Below are positions 12,106-59,346 of a stretch of 64,000 bases of DNA, piece by piece. The DNA lies in the IMG/VR virus record IMGVR_UViG_3300029288_003518, positions 32,001 through 96,000 of that record. The stretch is one strand, 5' to 3'. The notes beneath the pieces were generated by a model. It made no database searches. It had not been told where the DNA came from and worked only from the letters and a program-made list of their open reading frames with translations. Both the position numbers and the translations under genes were made by a program. This DNA comes from a virus (lineage: Duplodnaviria; Caudoviricetes). Each line of letters opens with the position of its first letter. Position 1 is the stretch's first letter.

Positions 12106-12476
12106 TGGTGGAGCTGGGGAGGATCGAACCTCCCGTCCTTATATACTTGAAACTTATCGAATTACGACCATGTGGGGATGACTAGGCTCGTCCGCTATTT
12201 CCCTGTACTAATCAACCCTCCACCACTAGACTAATGCCGGCTCTAGAACCGTATTACGGGTACTACATTGTACTGGTTTATGTTGCCACGCACCAGTAAC
12301 GAGCGTCGCTCCGATAGGAGCAATAGAGTTTCCGAAATGATCAGAGACCATTCTTTCAACTCTTGCAAAAGCAGTTGGCTTCGCATTTATTATTTGGTTC
12401 GATTTTTAACGAGGCCCAGAACCATCCTCGAGTCGCGCATCGTCTCTCGATATACAAGTCGATACCTTTCAGCCCC
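12106..12476 (-). ncRNA. ssrA: tmRNA (one-piece, about 371 nt)
   Basis: 5' end GGGGCTGAAAGGTATCGAC and 3' end GGACGGGAGGTTCGATCCTCCCCAGCTCCACCA form an Ala acceptor stem with G3.U70 and an encoded CCA. Pseudoknot 1 (CGAGG/CCTCG with GGTTC/GAACC) is followed by the resume context ATAAAT-GCG. Confidence 0.93.
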
Positions 12477-31632: not shown

Positions 31633-32934
31633 TTATGCTCCTATAACTCCAGATGGATATGCTGAGTAGAAATAACCGGTATGTATTGGAAGATACCAAG
31701 AAAATCCAGATATCGTTGGATTCCACACTTCTACCGGATCACCCACCCAAAGATCGTCACTATCACCTATGCCTCCGCATTGCCATTTATCGTATATTCC
31801 ACTTGCCTTAGGATCCCATATATGAGGGAGAAAATCATACCCATTGGTCTTTTCGTCTACCCCATCCCAATAACTCTCATCACAAATTATGTTTCCAAAG
31901 AATATGGGATTATGATCATACACTTCATTAGCGTAATCCACAAGTTTGGTCCCTATGGCATGTCCTTCAGAATTAAGTAAATTACTTGGGTAACTTGGGT
32001 CCATAAGGTCACTTAGCTTCTCTATTGTAATGTCTGTCGCAGAGAGGCCTAGTTCTCTCGATATTCCATACTTCAATCCAAGATATGTTGAGTTAGCCGG
32101 ATTAGTATAGACATCTAATAGTCTGGATTTATAAGCATAATTTCTTTCCCCCTGTATTCTGGGAAGACCCAACATTAATCCGAATTCATCGAAACAGTTC
32201 CATATATTATAAATCTCTGGAGTAGATACTATTAAGTAAATGGTAGCAGAAACTGGTAAGCTAGTGGCTGCCTCGGTGTGTATGGTTAGGGCAGATATGA
32301 CCTCAATATAGTTAACCCCACTCGTGAGTGCCATATTGAAACTCCACGTAGCTCCACTTACATGGTTAGGATATGTAGCCTGTGACCATGGTCCTCCATT
32401 ATTCCTAATAAATATAAATAATCCAGATCCTTTTGTCCCAGTAATAACCTGCCAGAAACCATCAGCCGGAGATGTAACCGGATTAATCGTTGGGGGATAT
32501 GCTCCGAATAGGAACAGCACGAACATAAGACTATCAGACCAGTCCGAATATGTCCAACCATCTGTTGACCTTATCCGCGCATAGTATGTTCCCTCTTTCC
32601 CGAGAGTAAATTCAGGGGCAAGAGTATATTTTAGGTTATTACTTTGAAACTCGCTGGGATTTTTATCTATTGTTGCAAAGCTAGGGTCATTGAAGCTGAT
32701 CTGTATCTCATATAATAGTACATCACCATCCCCATAAGGTACTTCCCAAGAGAATGTTGGGTTTGTCCAGCTGAATGTTGGAGTACCATCAACTATATCC
32801 GGACCACCATCGACCATAAGATTCTCTGGTTTTGGCGGGGGATAGTTTAGACCATACTCCCATCCGGAATTATATTTATGTATTCCGTATTTAGAGGTGG
32901 ATACACTTAGGTATAACGGGTATGTTCTAGCCAT
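31633..32934 (-). CDS. Baseplate-associated protein with an FN3/Ig-like N-terminal part
   Basis: PTFSW...YEIQIS...YYARIRSTDG...SDWS is an FN3 pattern. FDEFGLMLGLPRIQGERN..YKSRL resembles the P2 gpI/wedge motif. Confidence 0.65.
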   Translation of the reverse strand: MARTYPLYLSVSTSKYGIHKYNSGWEYGLNYPPPKPENLMVDGGPDIVDGTPTFSWTNPTFSWEVPYGDGDVLLYEIQISFNDPSFATIDKNPSEFQSNNLKYTLAPEFTLGKEGTYYARIRSTDGWTYSDWSDSLMFVLFLFGAYPPTINPVTSPADGFWQVITGTKGSGLFIFIRNNGGPWSQATYPNHVSGATWSFNMALTSGVNYIEVISALTIHTEAATSLPVSATIYLIVSTPEIYNIWNCFDEFGLMLGLPRIQGERNYAYKSRLLDVYTNPANSTYLGLKYGISRELGLSATDITIEKLSDLMDPSYPSNLLNSEGHAIGTKLVDYANEVYDHNPIFFGNIICDESYWDGVDEKTNGYDFLPHIWDPKASGIYDKWQCGGIGDSDDLWVGDPVEVWNPTISGFSWYLPIHTGYFYSAYPSGVIGA

Positions 32935-34272
32935 TTACTTCTCTCCGTTTATTAGAATAGGCTTCCCTGTAGTCTTATATACTTTTATGTCGTCAGCCAG
33001 TTTCACTGTATTTTTTTTATACCATGTATTATACTTCTCTAATAGATATTCCATATCGAACACGGTGAACTTATCCCACGCATAGGGGAATAAAAGTGGA
33101 TGTTTCTTATCCGGAGATATCGTTTTGTCCTCATATCCGGTTCCGTCTAATGGAGTGAACGGGAGAAGGGCAGGGTTGACCCCAAGGTCAAGACACCGAG
33201 AGATGGATTCAATTGCATTCTCTTTTGTTTGCCCAGGATAGCCTATCATTATATAGCTTGTTATGTTCTTGAAATACTTCTTAGCTATCGTAATAGCATT
33301 GTTCCAGGCTCCAACAGACTTTTTTCCTCCCCAGAAAGAAAGCTCGCTATCATCACAGTTATCTAGAGGGAGAATCATCTCCCCAAATCCTATTTTAGCA
33401 CACTTTGACATTATTTCATCGGTGACGGATGATGGCTCAAGCCCACCGTATGAACTTACCGACAATCCGTAGTCTTTTGATATTATCTTATCAAATATAT
33501 CCGACAGATGGCCGCCCCAGTGGCTCAATAAATCACTATCCATGAACCTCAGTTTCTTATAGCCAGAGGCCACTACATAATCGATAAATTTTATTACCCC
33601 ATCAGTATCCTTAAGAACCACTTTATCTCCCTCGAGTGTTCTCACGAAACAGAAAAAACAATTATTCTTACATCCAAGTGAAGTAGTAACTCCTATCCTT
33701 CTGGGCCTATACGGAATAAGCGACAGATCTGTGTCCAATAGTTCGCATCCATCATCGTAGAATTTATTAAAACCACCAGGTATTTTAAATATCTTAGAAT
33801 ATTTTCCGGAGATCATCACCTCTCCCTTAAAACCACTGTTATGTATAATTTCTGATACCTCGACTATCCCCAATTCAGAATAATAAGAAGATGAACTTGA
33901 CACATCAGACTTAGAACCCATATCGCATATAATTATCTTGTCAAAGTTTTCGGAGGCCAACTCATTTGCTAGAACTGATTTTGGTAAACCCGATCTAATA
34001 ATCGGTTTAACTAATTTCTCTGACTGGAAGTTACCACATTCCTTCCATACCCCGGTATCACTAATCAATAAGTCATTATCGTATTTCATGTCTCCGTTGA
34101 TACTTGATACTCTGGTGTTCATCGCCAATTCAGGAGCCATATCTATAATCTTGACCTTATCTCCAGATAGTCTATATTTAGTGGCAAGATTATACATATA
34201 CATAGCATATTGATATGTATTGTGGAAGTTATAAAAAGTATACACTGGCGGATTAATAAATAGAATATTCAT
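32935..34272 (-). CDS. Cobalamin (B12)-binding-domain radical SAM protein (class B methyltransferase-like)
   Basis: N-terminal MNILFINPP...KVKIID (B12-domain start), TSLGCKNNCFFC (CxxxCxxC), RFMDSD, YIMIGYPGQT and FTPLDGT. Confidence 0.85.
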   Translation of the reverse strand: MNILFINPPVYTFYNFHNTYQYAMYMYNLATKYRLSGDKVKIIDMAPELAMNTRVSSINGDMKYDNDLLISDTGVWKECGNFQSEKLVKPIIRSGLPKSVLANELASENFDKIIICDMGSKSDVSSSSSYYSELGIVEVSEIIHNSGFKGEVMISGKYSKIFKIPGGFNKFYDDGCELLDTDLSLIPYRPRRIGVTTSLGCKNNCFFCFVRTLEGDKVVLKDTDGVIKFIDYVVASGYKKLRFMDSDLLSHWGGHLSDIFDKIISKDYGLSVSSYGGLEPSSVTDEIMSKCAKIGFGEMILPLDNCDDSELSFWGGKKSVGAWNNAITIAKKYFKNITSYIMIGYPGQTKENAIESISRCLDLGVNPALLPFTPLDGTGYEDKTISPDKKHPLLFPYAWDKFTVFDMEYLLEKYNTWYKKNTVKLADDIKVYKTTGKPILINGEK

Positions 34273-34283
34273 CTTTTCTCCTG

Positions 34284-34814
34284 TTAGTCAAAAGCCCAAC
34301 ATTGTGAACAACAATTCTCTTGGCAGGTACATGTGCACGTACAAGTACACTGGCACTGACACTCACACTCACAGCATAGAGTGTGTACGTGACTGTGCAG
34401 TGTTTCACAGGCAGACCTAAGTTCATCCATATGTGGTTTGCGGATAAGAGTACTGGTAGCTGTTATTCCCCCCGAAGGAAAACTAACATCTATAGGGAGT
34501 GTTGTAGTGGAAAATCCCTTGGCAGAATGTCCATGGTTATTGATTGCAGTAAGTGCAGATCGTAATTCGGTGATATGGGAAGGTTTGATTGTAGTAGTAG
34601 AAGTTATGGTTTCACCCCAAGCAACAGAAATACTAGGGTTGCCTGTAGTTATAACACCATCCACAATGTGGTAGTGGTTATTTTCTCCCTCGAGAAAAGC
34701 CCTAATTTCATCTATGTGCCTCTTTTTAACGGTAGTAACATTGGCAGATATAACCGTGTCAGTCCATGCGTTTGAAGGATTAGGTATTGATAGACTGGTT
34801 GTCCAGGTGGTCAT
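34284..34814 (-). CDS. 176-aa protein with three ~47-aa repeats and a C-terminal (Cys-X)n tail; putative radical SAM substrate / fibre-like protein
   Basis: Repeats K..H(I/M).E(I/L)R......H.H three times, then CCECECQCQCTCTCTCTCQENCCSQCWAFD (13 Cys in 26 aa). Lies between the two radical SAM genes. Confidence 0.85.
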   Translation of the reverse strand: MTTWTTSLSIPNPSNAWTDTVISANVTTVKKRHIDEIRAFLEGENNHYHIVDGVITTGNPSISVAWGETITSTTTIKPSHITELRSALTAINNHGHSAKGFSTTTLPIDVSFPSGGITATSTLIRKPHMDELRSACETLHSHVHTLCCECECQCQCTCTCTCTCQENCCSQCWAFD

Positions 34815-34828
34815 GTTTAACCTCTCTA

Positions 34829-36187
34829 TTATCTTTTGATACTACACTGATCCGTCTTAGGGATTTCATTAATACCAAAATACTGCTCAATATTAAAGAG
34901 CTTAGATTTTATGATCTTATTTTCTCTAATCAGTTCAACCAGACATCTGGAAACAAGTTCCTCAAAATCATCGCATATTTCCGTTCCATCGCCCAAGTTA
35001 ACTACTATCTTTTTATTGTCTTCCATAAATATAATCTCCCATTTCTGTAGCTCAATCTTCTTGTCCAGTAGCAGTTGAATAACTTTCTTTTTCAACATAT
35101 TAGTGATAGCTAAATTCATGGCACAGTAACCATTGGTTGGTCTTTGTCCGGATGGATTATTTAATGACAAGTTTGTGGCATAACATCTATTACACGTATA
35201 AACTTTGCAATGCTCGCATTCTTTGTCGGCTTCGGCATGCATATTTATTAGCTTTAACCAATTCTCACAATTATAGTCTATCCCACCAGTATGAACATTG
35301 CCTAGGTTATAATCGAATTTACTCTTATATGATACGAATCTATGGCAAGGATATAAATCTCCATCGACAGTAACTCCTAATAGCTTATGACCGGCCCTAC
35401 ATCCGTGCTGGGAATTAAAAACTCTATCACCCATCCTCAATAGGATCCCGTGAACCTGGTTGAAGTTCATCTTTTCATGTCCCGGGAATTCCATAAACCT
35501 ATCTATGCAATCACTTAACTCCTTACTATAAGTATCTATATTTTCTCTGCTCCAGTCACCTTCTACGATTGGAGTGAGGTTAGTTATAACCCCACCAGAT
35601 TCCAGTAGAGCAGTAAAGTCTTTGGATAGATTGCTGATATTACTAGGGACAACAGTCTGTCTAACAATAAGTTGTGGGAATATCTCCCTTAGTCTTTTTA
35701 CATTATTTATAACCGCGCTAAAACTTCCCAGTCCCGATCCGGCAAAGATCCTATTTTTATCGTGCGATTCCTCACAACCATCCATTGAAACTTGAAGTTG
35801 GAAATTAATCCCTCTCCATTTCTTTGCTTCCCTGAAGAACTTGCACATCTCTTCAGTTAACACTGTCCCATTTGTGAGTATATAAAGCCCAACTGTAATC
35901 CCTATCTCATTAAATTTTTCCTTACAATACTCCATTCCATACTTTACAATCGGAAAGTTTAAGAGCGGCTCCCCTCCGAAGAATGTAATGGAAATTTCTT
36001 GATCAGGCCTAGCCTTCTCGAGCCTATCTCGCTGCCCTATAAGCCAATCTATTGTCCTCTTCATTGTTTCGCGGGACATATCTCCAGTCCTCTCGCTTTC
36101 GTAGCAATAGGAACAGGCAAGATTACACCTATTTGTTACAAATATGTAAAGAGAGGTAAAGGTATCCCTAGAAATTTCTTCTTGCAT
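34829..36187 (-). CDS. Radical SAM/SPASM-domain protein (anSME/CteB-like peptide maturase type)
   Basis: TNRCNLACSYCY, TFFGGEPLL, ILTNGT, QVSMDG...HDKNR, and SPASM GCRAG...DGDLYPCHRF...CEHCKVYTCNRC...YC. Confidence 0.93.
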   Translation of the reverse strand: MQEEISRDTFTSLYIFVTNRCNLACSYCYESERTGDMSRETMKRTIDWLIGQRDRLEKARPDQEISITFFGGEPLLNFPIVKYGMEYCKEKFNEIGITVGLYILTNGTVLTEEMCKFFREAKKWRGINFQLQVSMDGCEESHDKNRIFAGSGLGSFSAVINNVKRLREIFPQLIVRQTVVPSNISNLSKDFTALLESGGVITNLTPIVEGDWSRENIDTYSKELSDCIDRFMEFPGHEKMNFNQVHGILLRMGDRVFNSQHGCRAGHKLLGVTVDGDLYPCHRFVSYKSKFDYNLGNVHTGGIDYNCENWLKLINMHAEADKECEHCKVYTCNRCYATNLSLNNPSGQRPTNGYCAMNLAITNMLKKKVIQLLLDKKIELQKWEIIFMEDNKKIVVNLGDGTEICDDFEELVSRCLVELIRENKIIKSKLFNIEQYFGINEIPKTDQCSIKR

Positions 36188-36198
36188 TAATCCTCCGA

Positions 36199-37563
36199 CT
36201 AGACTATACTAACTATCAACCCATTCTTAACTGTTATTGTTTTACCATTAGCACTAGTAAAACTACCATTTGCGCCGACGCTAGCTCCCGTCTTATAAGA
36301 AACAGCCTGTACTACATCAAAGTTACCGGAACCCAATGATACAGCAGCGGTACCGACAGATTGTGTTCCACTGGCTGTGGGTATAATATTGGCATCTATT
36401 GTATGGCCGGCCCTAGACCAAGGAAGATCGGTTAGGGTGCTATGGGATAATCCAGTCCCTCTGCCATATATATTAGTAAGATATACATTATCACTTCTCA
36501 ATGTCCCAAAATTACCCTCGCTAAAGGCTAGAGCTTGAGTCCCACAACTCCTAGTCCCGCTGGCTTCGGGTAAGAAGTTACCACTCGCAGTAACGTTCCC
36601 AAAAGCGTATATATCAGAGTTCAACTCAAATCTTGAGCTTCCATCCCGCCATCTCAAATATTTGTCAGTGATAATACTGTTATTATAGAAATATATAGAT
36701 TGATCTTTATCTGGCCCGGGATGATTCAGAAATATTGCAGCACCACTAGCAAATATATAGTTCCCGTAAACATTGCCTCCACGCAACTCTGTTCCAGCAT
36801 AAATGTTTCCAGGAATACTTATATCTTCTATTGGGATATCTGCCAAAGCCATACCGTGAGGATTTGTGCTACTTACAACCGCTGTACCCACGGCACTTAT
36901 ATGTTCCTGAACAGTATCAAAAGTCCCAGCTCCCGGAGGAAGGCACGATATAGCCGACGCATCATGAGCATCTACGGTGGCTCCAATGTGGGATATTAAA
37001 TTAGTATAATTACTTTCTAAGGTAGGTTTACCGACGGTAACCCAAGATGAACCCTTAATATCATCCATAAGAGCTCCAGACCTAACGGTATTGTCTACCA
37101 GCCTATTGCCATTGATACCACTTGCGGCAATTGCTGTATCTATACCATTAAGCCTTAATTGAATGGTATTGTATGGTCCCTGCGGATTCTCGCCAATGGT
37201 ATCCTCTATTATTACAACCTCATCCTGGAGAGAATTAACGTGCTCTGCCATAATATCATCACCGAGACTCTTATAAGTAGCGCCTGCAGCAGTACCAGAG
37301 TTTCCGGAATGAAAAGTCAGCTTACCGGTTACATAATCAACCATGTAATGTCCGGCAGAAGTTGGGGGAGTGAGAACCTCAGTCCACGCAGCTCCGCCAG
37401 AAGCACCAACTACAGTTGAGGCCGAATCCTTAGGGACATGATCGAGATATATAGTATATGGGCTAACTGCGGGAACATTAAAATACTCAGGCCCGACAGC
37501 ATACCCTGATGCATTTTTATCTATCTTGAGAGTGAATGTTTTAGTGGTTAACGGGTAAGCCAT
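36199..37563 (-). CDS. Tail fibre/baseplate-associated structural protein
   Basis: AHDASAIS, NPHG and LP..SGT.S.G motifs, and a C-terminal GKTITVKNGLIVSI typical of phage fibres. Confidence 0.7.
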   Translation of the reverse strand: MAYPLTTKTFTLKIDKNASGYAVGPEYFNVPAVSPYTIYLDHVPKDSASTVVGASGGAAWTEVLTPPTSAGHYMVDYVTGKLTFHSGNSGTAAGATYKSLGDDIMAEHVNSLQDEVVIIEDTIGENPQGPYNTIQLRLNGIDTAIAASGINGNRLVDNTVRSGALMDDIKGSSWVTVGKPTLESNYTNLISHIGATVDAHDASAISCLPPGAGTFDTVQEHISAVGTAVVSSTNPHGMALADIPIEDISIPGNIYAGTELRGGNVYGNYIFASGAAIFLNHPGPDKDQSIYFYNNSIITDKYLRWRDGSSRFELNSDIYAFGNVTASGNFLPEASGTRSCGTQALAFSEGNFGTLRSDNVYLTNIYGRGTGLSHSTLTDLPWSRAGHTIDANIIPTASGTQSVGTAAVSLGSGNFDVVQAVSYKTGASVGANGSFTSANGKTITVKNGLIVSIV

Positions 37564-37615: not shown

Positions 37616-38599
37616 TTAGTTATTAGATATAAATACCCCAGAGTTCCTATAGTCTTCCCTGAAGTAAACATACCTATTTACTTTATCTAAAGTAAAGTAA
37701 TCATATCTAGGATTCAACTCAAACACCCTTCTTTTTTGTGTGTCGCACACTCGAAGTATTCTCTGTTGATCCATTAGAATCCCAGATGGTTCTAAACCAT
37801 CAAATTCTCCAGTTATATTAAAGGAAGCCACCATATCTAGAGTAGATGCAATTGGCTCCTGAGTTTTTGTACTAGTTAAATTTAAGTAGTAATTACTACC
37901 GGTTTTTCCTATCCACCATAGATACCCATCCTTAAAACACATATCCAGGGGAGTGCCATATCCAACGTTTAAAGCATACACCTCATAGTCCTCCAGCGTC
38001 TCGGTATCCTGCTTCCTAAAACCACCATCCGCATAGCACCATGAAAGATCATGCCTGTTCTTCCAGACATCAAATTTCTTCTGTCCTTTATCTAATATCC
38101 CACTTGGGGACGTATTCCAGGCCGCTCCATCTATTGTGGAAGAGAAGTCCCCAGAAGATGTTACCTCTAATCTAGTTGGGACTGTATTATAATAAAAATC
38201 TTCCAATGATGTTACATCTTGAACCCATATTTGGCTTACCCCGCTAGGTGAACAACCGGACGGAGCAGCTACACATCTGACACCAGAAGCTGATGCATCC
38301 AAAAGATTTAAATTGGTAGGGACTCTGGTCCTGTACAATATGTCTATTTCATCCACCGGAGCAGTATTGAGAAACTTACTTTTAACATTATATTCCAGGT
38401 CTCTCTCTATACCTTCCATGTGTATAGCAGTTGCTGCTATGAATTGCTGACCAACTGATCTTGGATTCTGCCTAAGGTGCATCCACTCGGGGAAATCATT
38501 AGCAAGATCCTGAGTAAGATAGCTGCGATATAATCCACTAGCAGCAATATTACCATATGGGTTAACGTATGTTCTGGCTACCTGTATCGGATAATTCAT
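37616..38599 (-). CDS. Baseplate-associated structural protein
   Basis: Directly after baseplate J; N-terminal LANDFPEWM is wedge-like; the C-terminus is beta-propeller-like. Confidence 0.55.
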   Translation of the reverse strand: MNYPIQVARTYVNPYGNIAASGLYRSYLTQDLANDFPEWMHLRQNPRSVGQQFIAATAIHMEGIERDLEYNVKSKFLNTAPVDEIDILYRTRVPTNLNLLDASASGVRCVAAPSGCSPSGVSQIWVQDVTSLEDFYYNTVPTRLEVTSSGDFSSTIDGAAWNTSPSGILDKGQKKFDVWKNRHDLSWCYADGGFRKQDTETLEDYEVYALNVGYGTPLDMCFKDGYLWWIGKTGSNYYLNLTSTKTQEPIASTLDMVASFNITGEFDGLEPSGILMDQQRILRVCDTQKRRVFELNPRYDYFTLDKVNRYVYFREDYRNSGVFISNN

Positions 38600-38608
38600 A
38601 TTTTTCTC

Positions 38609-39742
38609 CTATAGTACCCTAATCGCTTCAGCAATGCTTGTATCTGGGTAAAACATTTCATCCCAATATATTTCGACATTTCCCATGAAGGTGGGTTCTT
38701 GCCTAAAGTAATAACAATTGATAACGTGATCTGAGATCTTTGTACTTACATCCATTATCTGTTGCCTAAGTTCATTAAGGATAAAGGTCCCACCTATGGG
38801 TATATTTACAATATACTTTTCTATTGCTGTCTTAATTTTGCCGCGGATAGTATCCTTATCGGTATCGGATGTATTATCCACAAATATTATTCTGACTTCA
38901 ATTTCAACCGGTACAATCCCGGGCTTTATTGCCGTCCCAGTTATTCCTAAAGCCTGGACAGAGTTAATAGCCGACTGGACATCCGATAACATTTTATCAG
39001 TGGCCAAACCTTCTACCGGTATAACTATCATATCGTAGCTTCCTATTCCTCTAGCATACGGTCTTATTATAACATCTGCAATTCCGGTAACAGATAGGGC
39101 CGCAAGCCTAATAGCCGTTTCATTTGCTTTCTCTGCCGAAAGACTAGCGTTGATGATCCTATACCTAAAGTTAGCGTCTGCTTCTGTATCCGATCCTCCG
39201 ATGATAACTTTCTCATTAGTAGTAAATACATCGCTTATTCCCAGGCTATGTTTAGTTAATGTATTAACTCCCACATTAGAATTACTTCCAGAAGTAGATG
39301 CTTCTAATGGAACATATACCTGAGTATCGGCTATACCAAATGCGGTATCGGAAGATACCGTAAATACTATTGAACCATCGTCGGTACTTATCTGGGTGCC
39401 CTGTGGGATAATATCAGTTGGTATCCTACTATGGAGAGTCCCGGAAGCAACATATATTATCTGAGTTGTATCTCCAGATGAGGTTGTAGCCTTTGTAGGA
39501 GTTAATCTCTTCATACTGAATAAATCTCCTATCAAATCCAAGAAATATCCCTCTGCAGTTGATACGAATCCCATAGCAGTATTTATATCTAGTATATCAT
39601 AATACTCGGATAGGTTTAAATTAATAACCTCTATTAACGAACGAGCAATACCCCCAACGGTTTGATTGGTGATATTTGACCTCGTAACCAAATGTTGTAA
39701 TGACTTTTTAACTAACGATCCATAGTCTTTTCTAAATATCAT
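38609..39742 (-). CDS. Baseplate J-like wedge protein
   Basis: TAEGYFLDLIG...R, IPQGTQIST, GGSDTEADANFRYRI and ALSVTGIADV. Confidence 0.92.
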   Translation of the reverse strand: MIFRKDYGSLVKKSLQHLVTRSNITNQTVGGIARSLIEVINLNLSEYYDILDINTAMGFVSTAEGYFLDLIGDLFSMKRLTPTKATTSSGDTTQIIYVASGTLHSRIPTDIIPQGTQISTDDGSIVFTVSSDTAFGIADTQVYVPLEASTSGSNSNVGVNTLTKHSLGISDVFTTNEKVIIGGSDTEADANFRYRIINASLSAEKANETAIRLAALSVTGIADVIIRPYARGIGSYDMIVIPVEGLATDKMLSDVQSAINSVQALGITGTAIKPGIVPVEIEVRIIFVDNTSDTDKDTIRGKIKTAIEKYIVNIPIGGTFILNELRQQIMDVSTKISDHVINCYYFRQEPTFMGNVEIYWDEMFYPDTSIAEAIRVL

Positions 39743-39755
39743 TTTAGTCTCCTTA

Positions 39756-40166
39756 CTAGTATGATAGTATCCCGCTGTTTAAATCAAACGTCATATCTGG
39801 GGTAACATTTAAAACTGCCATTCCATCCCTCACAAAAACATAATAAACAAGACTATAGAGTGATATGGGCACAGCCTTAACCATTAAGTCTATACCGGCT
39901 ACTCTGCCATCTTTTGTGAGAGAGTAAACTATTTTCTCTTCACCCCTTTGGGCAGTTATCCTTGTATTTTGTTCACCAATTATCGAAGAAAGATCCGCTC
40001 CAATGTCTGGATGAGGTCCAAAATCATTAAAATCAGTTCTTAACCTAAATGAAATATCCTGTTTCAATACTCCGGATGGATCTGCCAGATCGAAATCTCC
40101 GTTGGCTGCAACAGTCAAATCTCCGCTTGGTGAAACTTTTATGTCAATTTCAGAATAAGTTATCAT
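39756..40166 (-). CDS. gp25/GPW-like baseplate wedge (sheath initiator)
   Basis: GDL....GDF...LKQDISFRLRT...HPDIGADL..IIG; canonical position before baseplate J. Confidence 0.8.
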   Translation of the reverse strand: MITYSEIDIKVSPSGDLTVAANGDFDLADPSGVLKQDISFRLRTDFNDFGPHPDIGADLSSIIGEQNTRITAQRGEEKIVYSLTKDGRVAGIDLMVKAVPISLYSLVYYVFVRDGMAVLNVTPDMTFDLNSGILSY

Positions 40167-57984: not shown

Positions 57985-59346
57985 TTATTCAGAGGTTAGC
58001 GCAACGATCACAGTGATCTGTTGCAATTCGAAAGCCGGTACCAAGATTAACTCTACAGTAGCCTTACCCAATACTTGATCGGTAGGCGTTGCGTATACGT
58101 TAAAGTTGAATCTCCTCAGTGCACCACGTTCCTGCATGTTCTTGAGAGCATTTTCAATCGCAGTAGCCATTGCATTTCTTTGAGGCGCGTTATTGGGTTC
58201 ACCAATAAATTGATCAGCAGTAGCCCTGACGTAGTTGATTGCGTCGTGAACAATTCTCACGGTTGACAATCTTACAAAATCAGAACGGGAGTACGCATCA
58301 ATATTATATGCACCTGTCATAGCACTAGCCACAACAACACCTTTCGGTTTTTGAATAAAAGTAACATACCTTCCACCAGCCAAACGATTAGCCTGGTATT
58401 CAGATACACCCTGATTGAGGGTCACTCCCTGAACAATCTTGTTCGTAGGAGCACTCTTAGATTCCAAACCGCTTATTAAACCAGCATACACAGCAGCACC
58501 ATTCGTATTATAGTAACCAATGGTAGGATAAAGCTCAATAGCTGCATCATTTGTCGCCCTGACATTAACCGCGACAACTGAAATATATGCACCTATATCT
58601 ACTTTATTACCCTTGGCATCTATAACATCGCCACCGGCATAGCTAGCAGGCATCTCTTCTGTCGTAGTTGCAACAAACCTATAGTTACCGGGAACACCTA
58701 AAGCAGTAGCAGTTGTCCCATCATAACAAGCCAGGGCCCCCTGATACGTCTCTAATTTCTTAACCCATGTTTCAACTTCAGCAAGGGTTGGCGCTCCTGA
58801 AGCGCTAGTTGTTGCACCCGTAGTACCGATTACGCCTATACAAGTGTTATTATTTTTAGTAGCTTGATAACAGAAATTTGCTAACTGATAACCAAAATTC
58901 CAAGAAGTACCATCACCACCATGATAATTCGCTGTAACTGAATCATCCATACTAACACCAACCGGGACTATAATATCGACATTATGGTTTATTAGAACAT
59001 AATATGCATAGTCTAAGTAACCATACAAGTCATTAGCGGCAATAAAAGCTCCAGAAGCAGCGGGAAGAATATTCAAAAGTTCGATATCCATTCCACCTGC
59101 GATATGACATTCGTACAGAGCTTTACAAAGTTCGCTGACTGAGCCATCTGCATTTTTGAATGCCTGATAGGCAGTAGTCATTGAGCCATCCGAAATAGAG
59201 TATGGTACATACGGCGTAGCTTTAGTATTAGTTGAAGTGGTCTTTCCAAGCAGGAGGATCGTAGGGCCAGACGGCGGTCTACTTACACGTAAGCCTTGAT
59301 CTAATATTTCTACCGTTGCTCCTGGTAAATTCGCAAAGGTTGGCAT
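57985..59346 (-). CDS. Tail sheath protein
   Basis: N-terminal LPGATVEI; C-terminal sheath domain SAPTNK...LSTVRIV...FIGEPN...VELILVPAFELQQI. Confidence 0.92.
   Translation of the reverse strand: MPTFANLPGATVEILDQGLRVSRPPSGPTILLLGKTTSTNTKATPYVPYSISDGSMTTAYQAFKNADGSVSELCKALYECHIAGGMDIELLNILPAASGAFIAANDLYGYLDYAYYVLINHNVDIIVPVGVSMDDSVTANYHGGDGTSWNFGYQLANFCYQATKNNNTCIGVIGTTGATTSASGAPTLAEVETWVKKLETYQGALACYDGTTATALGVPGNYRFVATTTEEMPASYAGGDVIDAKGNKVDIGAYISVVAVNVRATNDAAIELYPTIGYYNTNGAAVYAGLISGLESKSAPTNKIVQGVTLNQGVSEYQANRLAGGRYVTFIQKPKGVVVASAMTGAYNIDAYSRSDFVRLSTVRIVHDAINYVRATADQFIGEPNNAPQRNAMATAIENALKNMQERGALRRFNFNVYATPTDQVLGKATVELILVPAFELQQITVIVALTSE

Follow-up and report, generated by a model that had tools for sequence, protein, structure and literature searches.

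A cysteine-ladder protein encoded beside a radical SAM/SPASM enzyme in phage tail modules: a candidate for thioether cross-linking of a tail-associated protein

Described SPASM systems and the phage cassette

Radical S-adenosylmethionine (radical SAM) enzymes of the SPASM type are known to carry out thioether chemistry on peptide natural products that are secreted and, since very recently, on a single Cys-rich protein of an archaeon. Among these enzymes, PapB uses Asp or Glu as the acceptor and CteB uses Thr, while QhpD introduces several Cys-to-Asp/Glu thioethers into QhpC, the small (gamma) subunit of quinohemoprotein amine dehydrogenase; Thr (CteB) and Glu (QhpD) thus number among the reported acceptors of Cys-to-carbon thioether bonds. 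The closest published counterpart of the system described here is CrpC/CrpA of Methanococcus voltae, where a SPASM enzyme places ranthionine links, demonstrated by mass spectrometry, in a 28.8-kDa Cys-rich protein (Dieter et al. 2026; PMC13692751), and which provides an experimental precedent for protein-scale ranthionine cross-linking by an enzyme of this kind. We analysed a stretch of 64,000 nucleotides ("the window"), comprising bases 32001-96000 of a 113.8-kb record of a tailed virus in IMG/VR (IMGVR_UViG_3300029288_003518; approximately 55% complete according to CheckV), in which a 176-aa protein terminating in a ladder of closely spaced cysteines is encoded between two radical SAM enzymes within a tail and baseplate region. 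We found no paper in the literature describing radical-SAM modification of phage tail proteins.

The reading that we favor, at a probability of roughly 0.55, is that this cassette mediates thioether cross-linking, and probably methylation, of a tail-associated protein that is kept whole. Read in the direction of transcription, the genes encode a SPASM enzyme of 452 aa (34829-36187, minus strand), the Cys-ladder protein, its presumed substrate (34284-34814, minus strand), and a second radical SAM enzyme of 445 aa with a class-B-like architecture (32935-34272, minus strand). Coordinates without a prefix are window positions, L-numbers denote related loci and P-numbers homologous proteins. An earlier note on this DNA had described three consecutive, co-oriented genes with gaps of 11-14 nt amid baseplate and fibre genes, in exact agreement with the list of open reading frames (ORFs), and every motif it quoted (CNLACSYC, the SPASM cysteines, GCKNNCFFC and the Cys-rich C-terminus) is found in the translations.

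The 452-aa protein displays the CX3CX2C motif as CNLACSYC (C21/C25/C28), followed by seven cysteines of a SPASM motif (C263, C281, C324, C327, C332, C335 and C355). Like the 445-aa protein it is a member of the radical SAM superfamily (PF04055), and it falls in addition within the SPASM subfamily (PF13186/TIGR04085): its Pfam scores are 59.2 bits for Radical_SAM (cutoff 29.5), 27.0 for Fer4_12 and 23.2 for SPASM (cutoff 21.5), and phrog_1802 matches it with an E-value of 7.9e-36. The spacing of the SPASM motif, CX2CX4CX2C, is a little shorter than the canonical CX2CX5CX3C; G276-x4-C281 is present, and the seven SPASM cysteines, together with C138, are invariant in an alignment of 17 orthologues (A3). 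Homologue scores are sharply bimodal, with an orthologous clade at 269-736 bits and generic SPASM enzymes at no more than 146 bits. Orthologous SPASM genes at L002:2197-4488, L004:8589-10880 and L005:3985-6309 are interrupted by an intein that measures some 338 aa and carries a LAGLIDADG endonuclease; its insertion point lies just before the third Cys of the CX3CX2C motif (...CSY/C-VPAGT ... VHN/C-YESE...), so that the +1 splice nucleophile is itself a cluster ligand.

A kinship with CteB/SCIFF-type maturases, to whose chemistry the earlier note had appealed, is supported by hidden Markov model searches, in which the enzyme scores best against thioether-forming peptide maturases, and by structure, in that its nearest solved relative is CteB itself (5wgg, E 1.2e-31). 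It matches 73 peptide-maturase models of NCBIfam, headed by PapB (NF047865; 215 bits, cutoff 340) and followed by the nif11-type (187 bits), CcpM (151), QhpD (TIGR03906; 145.7, cutoff 453), CXXX-repeat (TIGR04115; 138.6, cutoff 350) and SCIFF/CteB (TIGR03974; 136.3, cutoff 425) models, belonging by its scores to none of the PapB, QhpD, CXXX-repeat or SCIFF families. Residues 10-340 align with CteB 96-421, and the SCIFF profile is likewise aligned from position 96; because the alignment begins only at CteB residue 96, the phage enzyme lacks the N-terminal recognition element (RRE) of maturases for peptides that ribosomes make and that are modified after translation (RiPPs). Instead, it has a family-specific C-terminal extension of approximately 100 aa, in which a Pfam search for PqqD/RRE domains at an E-value of 10 gave no match.

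Comparison with the described systems yields a mixture of likenesses and departures. With PapB/PapA (freyrasin) and CteB/CteA (thermocellin, SCIFF) the locus shares its best NCBIfam model, its best structural match and motifs for three [4Fe-4S] clusters, and the acceptors of PapB and CteB resemble the Glu, Gln and Thr of the phage ladder; unlike PapA and CteA, the putative substrate is a folded protein of 176 aa with C-X spacing, and its product is probably not secreted. QhpD is also a SPASM enzyme, and QhpD/QhpC is the classic example of a subunit stapled by thioethers, QhpC staying a structural part of its larger assembly, but QhpC has neither a Cys ladder nor HxH repeats, and the Qhp system is periplasmic and requires the QhpE protease and the QhpG flavoenzyme. 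Resemblance to CrpC/CrpA lies in the substrate, a whole Cys-rich protein encoded by a neighboring gene, with repetitive cysteines at its C-terminus and no known protease or exporter. However, the phage enzyme reaches only 71.8 bits against the CrpC model (TIGR04463, cutoff 525), placing it outside that family, and is without the N-terminal RRE; its substrate has a C-X motif in place of the 17-residue CrpA repeat with C-X-X-Q/D, and it resides in a phage tail module with an extra class-B radical SAM partner rather than in an archaeal chromosome.

The Cys-ladder protein and its repeat domain

The ladder protein comprises an N-terminal domain (residues 1-146; 34377-34814, minus strand) and a C-terminal Cys-X ladder (residues 147-176; 34287-34376, minus strand), the presumed site of modification, where 13 of the final 30 residues are Cys and X is Glu, Gln or Thr. 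A word index returned 19 homologues, and 16 full-length representative clusters were found at E<1e-30. Their alignment (A1) reveals an internal repeat in three copies, every copy combining a Trp-containing loop (WTD/SW) with an H-x2-E(L/I)R motif and an HxH triplet; the triplets (H47/H49, H94/H96 and H142/H144) are invariant, as are the Cys columns of the tail, which begins 2-4 residues past the last HxH. Across 47 unique tails, nearly all accompanied by exactly three HxH motifs and containing 8-16 Cys, the X of C-X-C is Thr in 52%, Glu in 19% and Gln in 11% of cases, 82% in all; the repeat is accordingly C-X, of neither the CXXX nor the SCIFF type. Ladder, HxH triplets and neighboring enzymes alike recur in these 47 homologues and at more than 20 loci, which argues that their association is not due to chance. 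The predominance of Thr, Glu and Gln in turn supports thioether formation, since Thr and Glu are known acceptors and Gln is suggested by analogy with CrpA. In that protein the C-X-X-Q/D motif was itself read as suggestive of thioether formation (PMC13692751). Proteins with Asn-Cys ladders (P0182, P0219 and P0290) match the A1 profile over almost their full length.

An AlphaFold2 (AF2) model of the 176-aa protein (pTM 0.73) consists of three beta-alpha units, with helices at residues 31-44, 78-92 and 126-140, and a disordered tail. Because each HxH motif directly follows a helix, parallel helices would bring all three to one end of the bundle, where they would probably form a six-histidine metal site. 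We claim no known fold for this predicted domain. A profile search of PDB sequences gave only a chance match (E 0.54) and Foldseek returned nothing below an E-value of 5. Matches from VIA-align to a designed helical filament (Z 7.3) and a BARA domain (Z 6.4) were rejected as helical-repeat noise, and the YmaF family (PF12788) was also set aside, at 22.8 bits against a cutoff of 27 and over residues 116-153 only; the homologue P0013 carries a precomputed PF12788 hit.

The arrangement of histidines recalls the HxH sites of phage fibres and spikes (the T4 gp37 tip, gp12, and the P2 and phi92 spike tips), where such motifs occur in threes at a threefold axis, here a pseudo-threefold one, and again in a tail gene context. 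It differs from gp37 and gp12 in that the three motifs belong to one chain rather than three, metal binding in the present case being a prediction, and no sequence or fold match of the ladder protein to gp37 or gp12 emerged from the PDB profile, Foldseek or VIA-align searches. In T4 gp37 and gp12, Fe or Zn is bound at HxH sites, and metal-thiolate proteins typically contain C-X-C and CC motifs. The HxH triplets and the ladder might accordingly bind metal ions or clusters in the manner of a metallothionein, as a metal-binding or Fe-S tail, with the radical SAM enzymes carrying out another reaction (epimerization, methylation or formylglycine formation) on the tail or on a neighboring fibre protein. 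CrpA too has been proposed to bind metals (PMC13692751), and models of anaerobic sulfatase maturases (anSME) do match the 452-aa protein, at 88 bits. That score is nevertheless far below those of the thioether maturases; X in the ladder is restricted to Thr, Glu and Gln, whereas metallothioneins typically have Lys, Ser and Gly; and the one-to-one pairing with the SPASM gene, documented below, points to the ladder as the target. We consider a purely metal-binding tail unlikely.

The N-terminal repeat is not confined to ladder proteins. A profile of the family matches 1675 proteins, and beyond the full-length family these matches are mostly triple WTD...H-x2-ELR repeats at the C-termini of proteins of 300-1400 aa rich in fn3, Ig and FG-GAP domains, which have no HxH, no Cys tail and no Pfam annotation for the repeat. 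The pattern, WTD...(I/V)(K/R)AxH(I/V)xELRxA, occurs in phages and bacteria, usually in three tandem C-terminal copies, as in P0174, P0226, P0232, P0170, P0158 and L106:6001-8121, and has the look of a pseudo-threefold domain for tips or adhesion that has so far gone unannotated. In a siphophage module P0226 has Dit, Tal and a 179-aa gene to one side of it and a holin to the other, the usual position of a receptor-binding protein, and the N-domain of the ladder protein is homologous to its C-terminal tip. Structural neighbors in the ESM Atlas, which we treat as leads only, are viral Ig and fn3 proteins.

Conservation of the ladder/SPASM pair in tail modules

Related loci were collected from metagenome contigs, from IMG/VR with profiles of both the substrate and the SPASM enzyme, and from species genomes. 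At every locus with sufficient flanking sequence, more than 20 in number (L002, L004-L009, L012-L017, L019-L024, L032-L034 and L109-L112), an orthologous SPASM gene adjoins the ladder gene, and conversely a ladder gene stands beside every member of the SPASM clade examined; a survey of these loci for a ladder gene lacking its SPASM neighbor found none. This strict one-to-one relationship argues that the ladder itself is the target, and the 176-aa protein is very probably the dedicated substrate of the adjacent enzyme. Gene order is SPASM-ladder-B12 in the window, in L110 and, less the B12 gene, in L109, and ladder-SPASM-B12 elsewhere. The second radical SAM gene occurs at all of these loci except L109, where it is missing, and L110, where it is split. 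L109 is the closest relative of the window, with a baseplate J protein 87% identical and an intact ladder; at L109:6900-7563, two small unrelated ORFs, one of 108 aa with two CxxC pairs and an unannotated one of 114 aa, take the place of the class-B-like gene. At L110:6780-8136 that gene extends across two reading frames, representing either a pseudogene or an assembly error. The core unit is consequently a pair, the ladder protein and its SPASM enzyme, to which a class-B enzyme is commonly added as an accessory; the earlier view of the three genes as a triad holds for the first two, which are always paired, but not for the third.

The second enzyme carries GCKNNCFFC at C201/C205/C208 (Pfam Radical_SAM, 40.2 bits). 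No B12-binding domain (PF02310), such as the earlier note had assigned to it, was detected in the window's protein, even when the isolated N-domain was searched at an E-value of 10, and its fold matches those of the non-B12 enzymes MiaB, RimO and AprD4 as well as those of B12 enzymes. Its orthologues at L111 and L006, on the other hand, pass the Pfam cutoff (36.4 and 34.2 bits; cutoff 32.1), those at L019 (26.1) and L016 (20.4) falling below it, and this suggests by orthology that the family has class-B architecture, with cobalamin use only a prediction. The AF2 model (pLDDT 84.6) has a five-stranded Rossmann-like N-domain and a beta-hairpin insert bearing a near-invariant CGN motif. Foldseek places TsrM, MgmA, MtaB/MiaB/RimO and AprD4 together at E-values of about 1e-14 to 1e-12, followed by CysS, OxsB and TokK (1e-10 to 1e-7), and the top PDB profile match is the glutamine methylase MgmA of methyl-coenzyme M reductase (MCR) (9ccb, E 1.8e-11), practically level with RimO. 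A methylthiotransferase of the MiaB/RimO/MtaB type was rejected, as the protein lacks the three-Cys N-terminal cluster and the TRAM domain and has a short C-terminus; in alignment A2 a single N-domain Cys, C79, is near-invariant, and methylthiotransferase models score 19-33 bits against cutoffs above 250. The class-B methylases MgmA and Mmp10 (acting on MCR) and PoyB/PoyC (polytheonamide) methylate unactivated carbons of protein or peptide residues. With them the 445-aa protein shares a two-domain fold and, in two of its orthologues, a B12-binding domain, but it differs in the CGN hairpin, the lack of a Pfam B12 domain and scores of 16-39 bits against NCBIfam class-B models, whose cutoffs are at least 251.

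Some lineages possess extended clusters. Those at L111:183-8626 and at L006:8001-13084/L007:1362-8344 include an aldo-keto reductase, a protein of 231-235 aa, the B12-type radical SAM enzyme and two extra radical SAM enzymes, to which L111 adds a diphthamide-synthase-like ATPase and two GT61 glycosyltransferases; in such clusters extra tailoring of the ladder protein may take place. These tailoring genes resemble those of natural-product clusters, and together with a layout of leader and C-terminal core comparable to Nif11/NHLP-type precursors, and with the nif11-like model as the second best for the SPASM enzyme, they would suit a phage-encoded RiPP or bacteriocin. The 146-residue N-domain would then be a leader, and the modified 30-residue ladder, once cleaved off, would leave the cell at lysis to act as a toxin, signal or metal chelator instead of joining the virion. 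Neither a protease, a GG-type cleavage motif nor an exporter was found in the window or in the related prophage L021, however, which also upholds the earlier remark that no transporter or protease gene lies adjacent to the cluster. The supposed leader is, moreover, more conserved than leaders usually are, has invariant HxH triplets and is homologous to fibre-like terminal domains, and the position in tail modules is kept across unrelated tail types. We therefore regard a cleaved and released peptide as quite improbable.

That position is itself informative. Baseplate J and a fibre-like gene come before the unit in myovirus-like contigs. In lambda-like elements it is the tape measure and, directly before the unit, the central tail fibre J that take this place, and after the unit, at the edge of the prophage, comes an Lcl_C (DUF1566) lectin-like protein. 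The cluster is thus situated in tail modules of two unrelated tail types, which lends weight to the structural target suspected from the window. To the lambda-like group belong a prophage (L021) from the complete Ca. Velamenicoccus archaeovorus chromosome, with a 191-aa counterpart of the ladder protein (L021:9956-10531), and contigs from two metagenome-assembled genomes of Omnitrophota. Ca. V. archaeovorus is described from a limonene-degrading methanogenic enrichment (PMC12583861, PMC13153191). Sequence of the window is present in landfill and groundwater metagenomes of four studies; the window may derive from two of these, and no RNA runs carrying the region were listed. An anaerobic host, as the earlier note had suggested from the oxygen-sensitive chemistry, fits these habitats and the Omnitrophota hosts but is not proven for this phage; strict anaerobiosis as deduced from the enzymes alone was dropped, given that radical SAM enzymes operate in aerobes as well.

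More distant relatives extend the theme. A second, related system (L047:2614-7134 and L004:3136-7275) encodes a protein of 239-255 aa with the triple WTD...H-x2-ELR repeat, which lacks HxH and has a Cys-rich C-terminal region of another kind, ending CKCNP(F/Y)TW; three radical SAM genes follow, those of L047 with SPASM-type C-terminal Cys motifs, and in L004 the two systems stand in tandem. Phage SPASM genes that are more distant (23-30% identity) directly adjoin proteins of 200-800 aa with CxxxC or Asn-Cys repeats at L035, L056, L061, L062, L069, L072-L082, L084, L086, L089, L097, L101 and L102, and two of the Cys-repeat proteins (L084:7053-8750 and L089:7122-8732) match PHROGs of Hoc-like head-decoration proteins. 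Gene neighborhoods of this sort suggest a broad class of radical-SAM-paired Cys-repeat proteins at the virion surface. The system in the window is a distinct branch of this theme, marked by the Thr/Glu/Gln-Cys ladder, three HxH motifs and a class-B partner, and by its occurrence in phages of anoxic habitats and Omnitrophota prophages.

The immediate neighbors in the window conform to a tail and baseplate setting. Upstream lies a fibre-like virion protein of 454 aa (36199-37563, minus strand), with positional homologues in L004, L109 and L110 and no family match in Pfam, NCBIfam or PHROG searches; downstream lies a virion structural protein of 433 aa (31633-32934, minus strand; phrog_21059, E 1.2e-31), syntenic in L002, L004, L109 and L110. 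From the 454-aa gene onwards the successive gaps are 11, 14, 11 and 0 nt, the start of the 433-aa gene directly abutting the second radical SAM gene, and GC content is even over the region (0.38-0.42). PHROG "virion structural protein" genes flank the cluster on either side; the 327-aa and 433-aa proteins both match phrog_21059, which suggests that they are paralogous virion proteins bracketing the cassette. None of the large surrounding genes (36199-37563, 37616-38599 and 31633-32934) reaches a Pfam cutoff. Farther away are a Baseplate J-like wedge protein (38609-39742, minus strand; Pfam Baseplate_J 1.2e-30, phrog_6 3.2e-42), a gp25-like baseplate protein (39756-40166) and a tail sheath (57985-59346). 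The phage's own genome record contains no radical SAM gene beyond the two and no second ladder protein. A full-length transfer-messenger RNA (tmRNA) was identified at 12106-12476 (minus strand) by Rfam (RF00023, 92.6 bits, E 9.5e-35), whereas ARAGORN reported no tmRNA or tRNA anywhere in the window.

Proposed function and its implications

We envision the following sequence of events. Three beta-alpha repeats of the 176-aa protein would come together in a pseudo-threefold domain, whose fold recurs at the C-terminal tips of phage receptor-binding-type proteins, and the (Cys-X)n tail after it would be flexible. The SPASM enzyme would most likely abstract hydrogen from the Thr, Glu and Gln side chains of the ladder and bond them to nearby Cys sulfurs, generating a stack of ranthionine-type thioether bridges, and the class-B-like enzyme, where present, would contribute additional tailoring, most likely C-methylation. 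Neither cleavage nor export would follow: the protein would stay whole and operate alongside the tail or baseplate apparatus as a tip or anchor that is covalently stapled and insensitive to redox conditions. Thioethers, unlike disulfides, are irreducible, and one may speculate that this would benefit an extracellular particle in sulfidic, reducing water. What the analysis establishes is the anatomy of the genes, their family relations, their strict co-occurrence and their place in tail modules. Of the further elements of this proposal, thioether chemistry is probable, given the maturase matches and ladder composition, and association of the ladder protein with the virion or tail has somewhat better than even odds, given its genomic setting.

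Several observations weigh against this reading. The SPASM enzyme falls under every curated NCBIfam cutoff, such that its chemistry is not confidently transferable from characterized relatives. To our knowledge, the C-X-C spacing is tighter than in any characterized ranthipeptide or sactipeptide, and the combination of HxH motifs with numerous cysteines is also compatible with a plain metal-binding tail. The AF2 model offers no confident structure for the ladder (pLDDT below 50 for residues 150-176), and the second enzyme, missing or frameshifted as described, is dispensable in at least one lineage. Two carriers of the N-domain repeat, P0232 and P0170, are bacterial secreted proteins with signal peptides, indicating that the repeat is extracellular and not specific to virions. 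No cultured relative was found either: neither megablast of the 10-kb region nor tblastn of the ladder protein found anything in 50,697 deposited phage genomes, and tblastn of the SPASM enzyme recovered only relatives of less than 32% identity, in gut, Salmonella and Campylobacter phages. Finally, no structural partner gene is common to the myovirus-type and siphovirus-type loci. This last feature would also suit a non-virion assembly factor, that is, a modified tail-fibre chaperone or scaffold that acts in morphogenesis and is absent from the mature particle, and small genes following fibre genes do often encode chaperones (lambda Tfa, T4 gp38/gp57). Yet it would be unusual to invest one to four dedicated enzymes in the covalent modification of a transient chaperone, and what the N-domain matches are terminal domains of fibre-like proteins in their mature form; a role limited to assembly seems to us very unlikely.

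A more far-reaching version of the thioether proposal, which we advance tentatively and hold to be somewhat less than an even bet, is that the SPASM enzyme and its cobalamin-type partner turn the C-terminal (Cys-Thr/Glu/Gln)n tail of a protein of the host-binding apparatus, in phages of anoxic habitats, into an irreversible ladder of thioether staples that is capped by a six-histidine metal site and replaces disulfides in reduction-proof form, the first radical-SAM-dependent covalent modification of a virion and part of a wider class of Cys-tailed phage fibre proteins matured by radical SAM enzymes. The thioether proposal is directly testable, because a prophage relative resides in the Ca. V. 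archaeovorus enrichment, for which metaproteomic and metatranscriptomic data exist. As a useful by-product, the analysis brings to light a widespread triple-repeat tip domain with 1675 profile matches and no Pfam model, and the system would supply compact enzyme/tag pairs for protein stapling. If the proposal is true, it would define a new class of post-translational modification of virions, beside the isopeptide cross-links of the HK97 type, with a bearing on fibre stability, host recognition and phage engineering.

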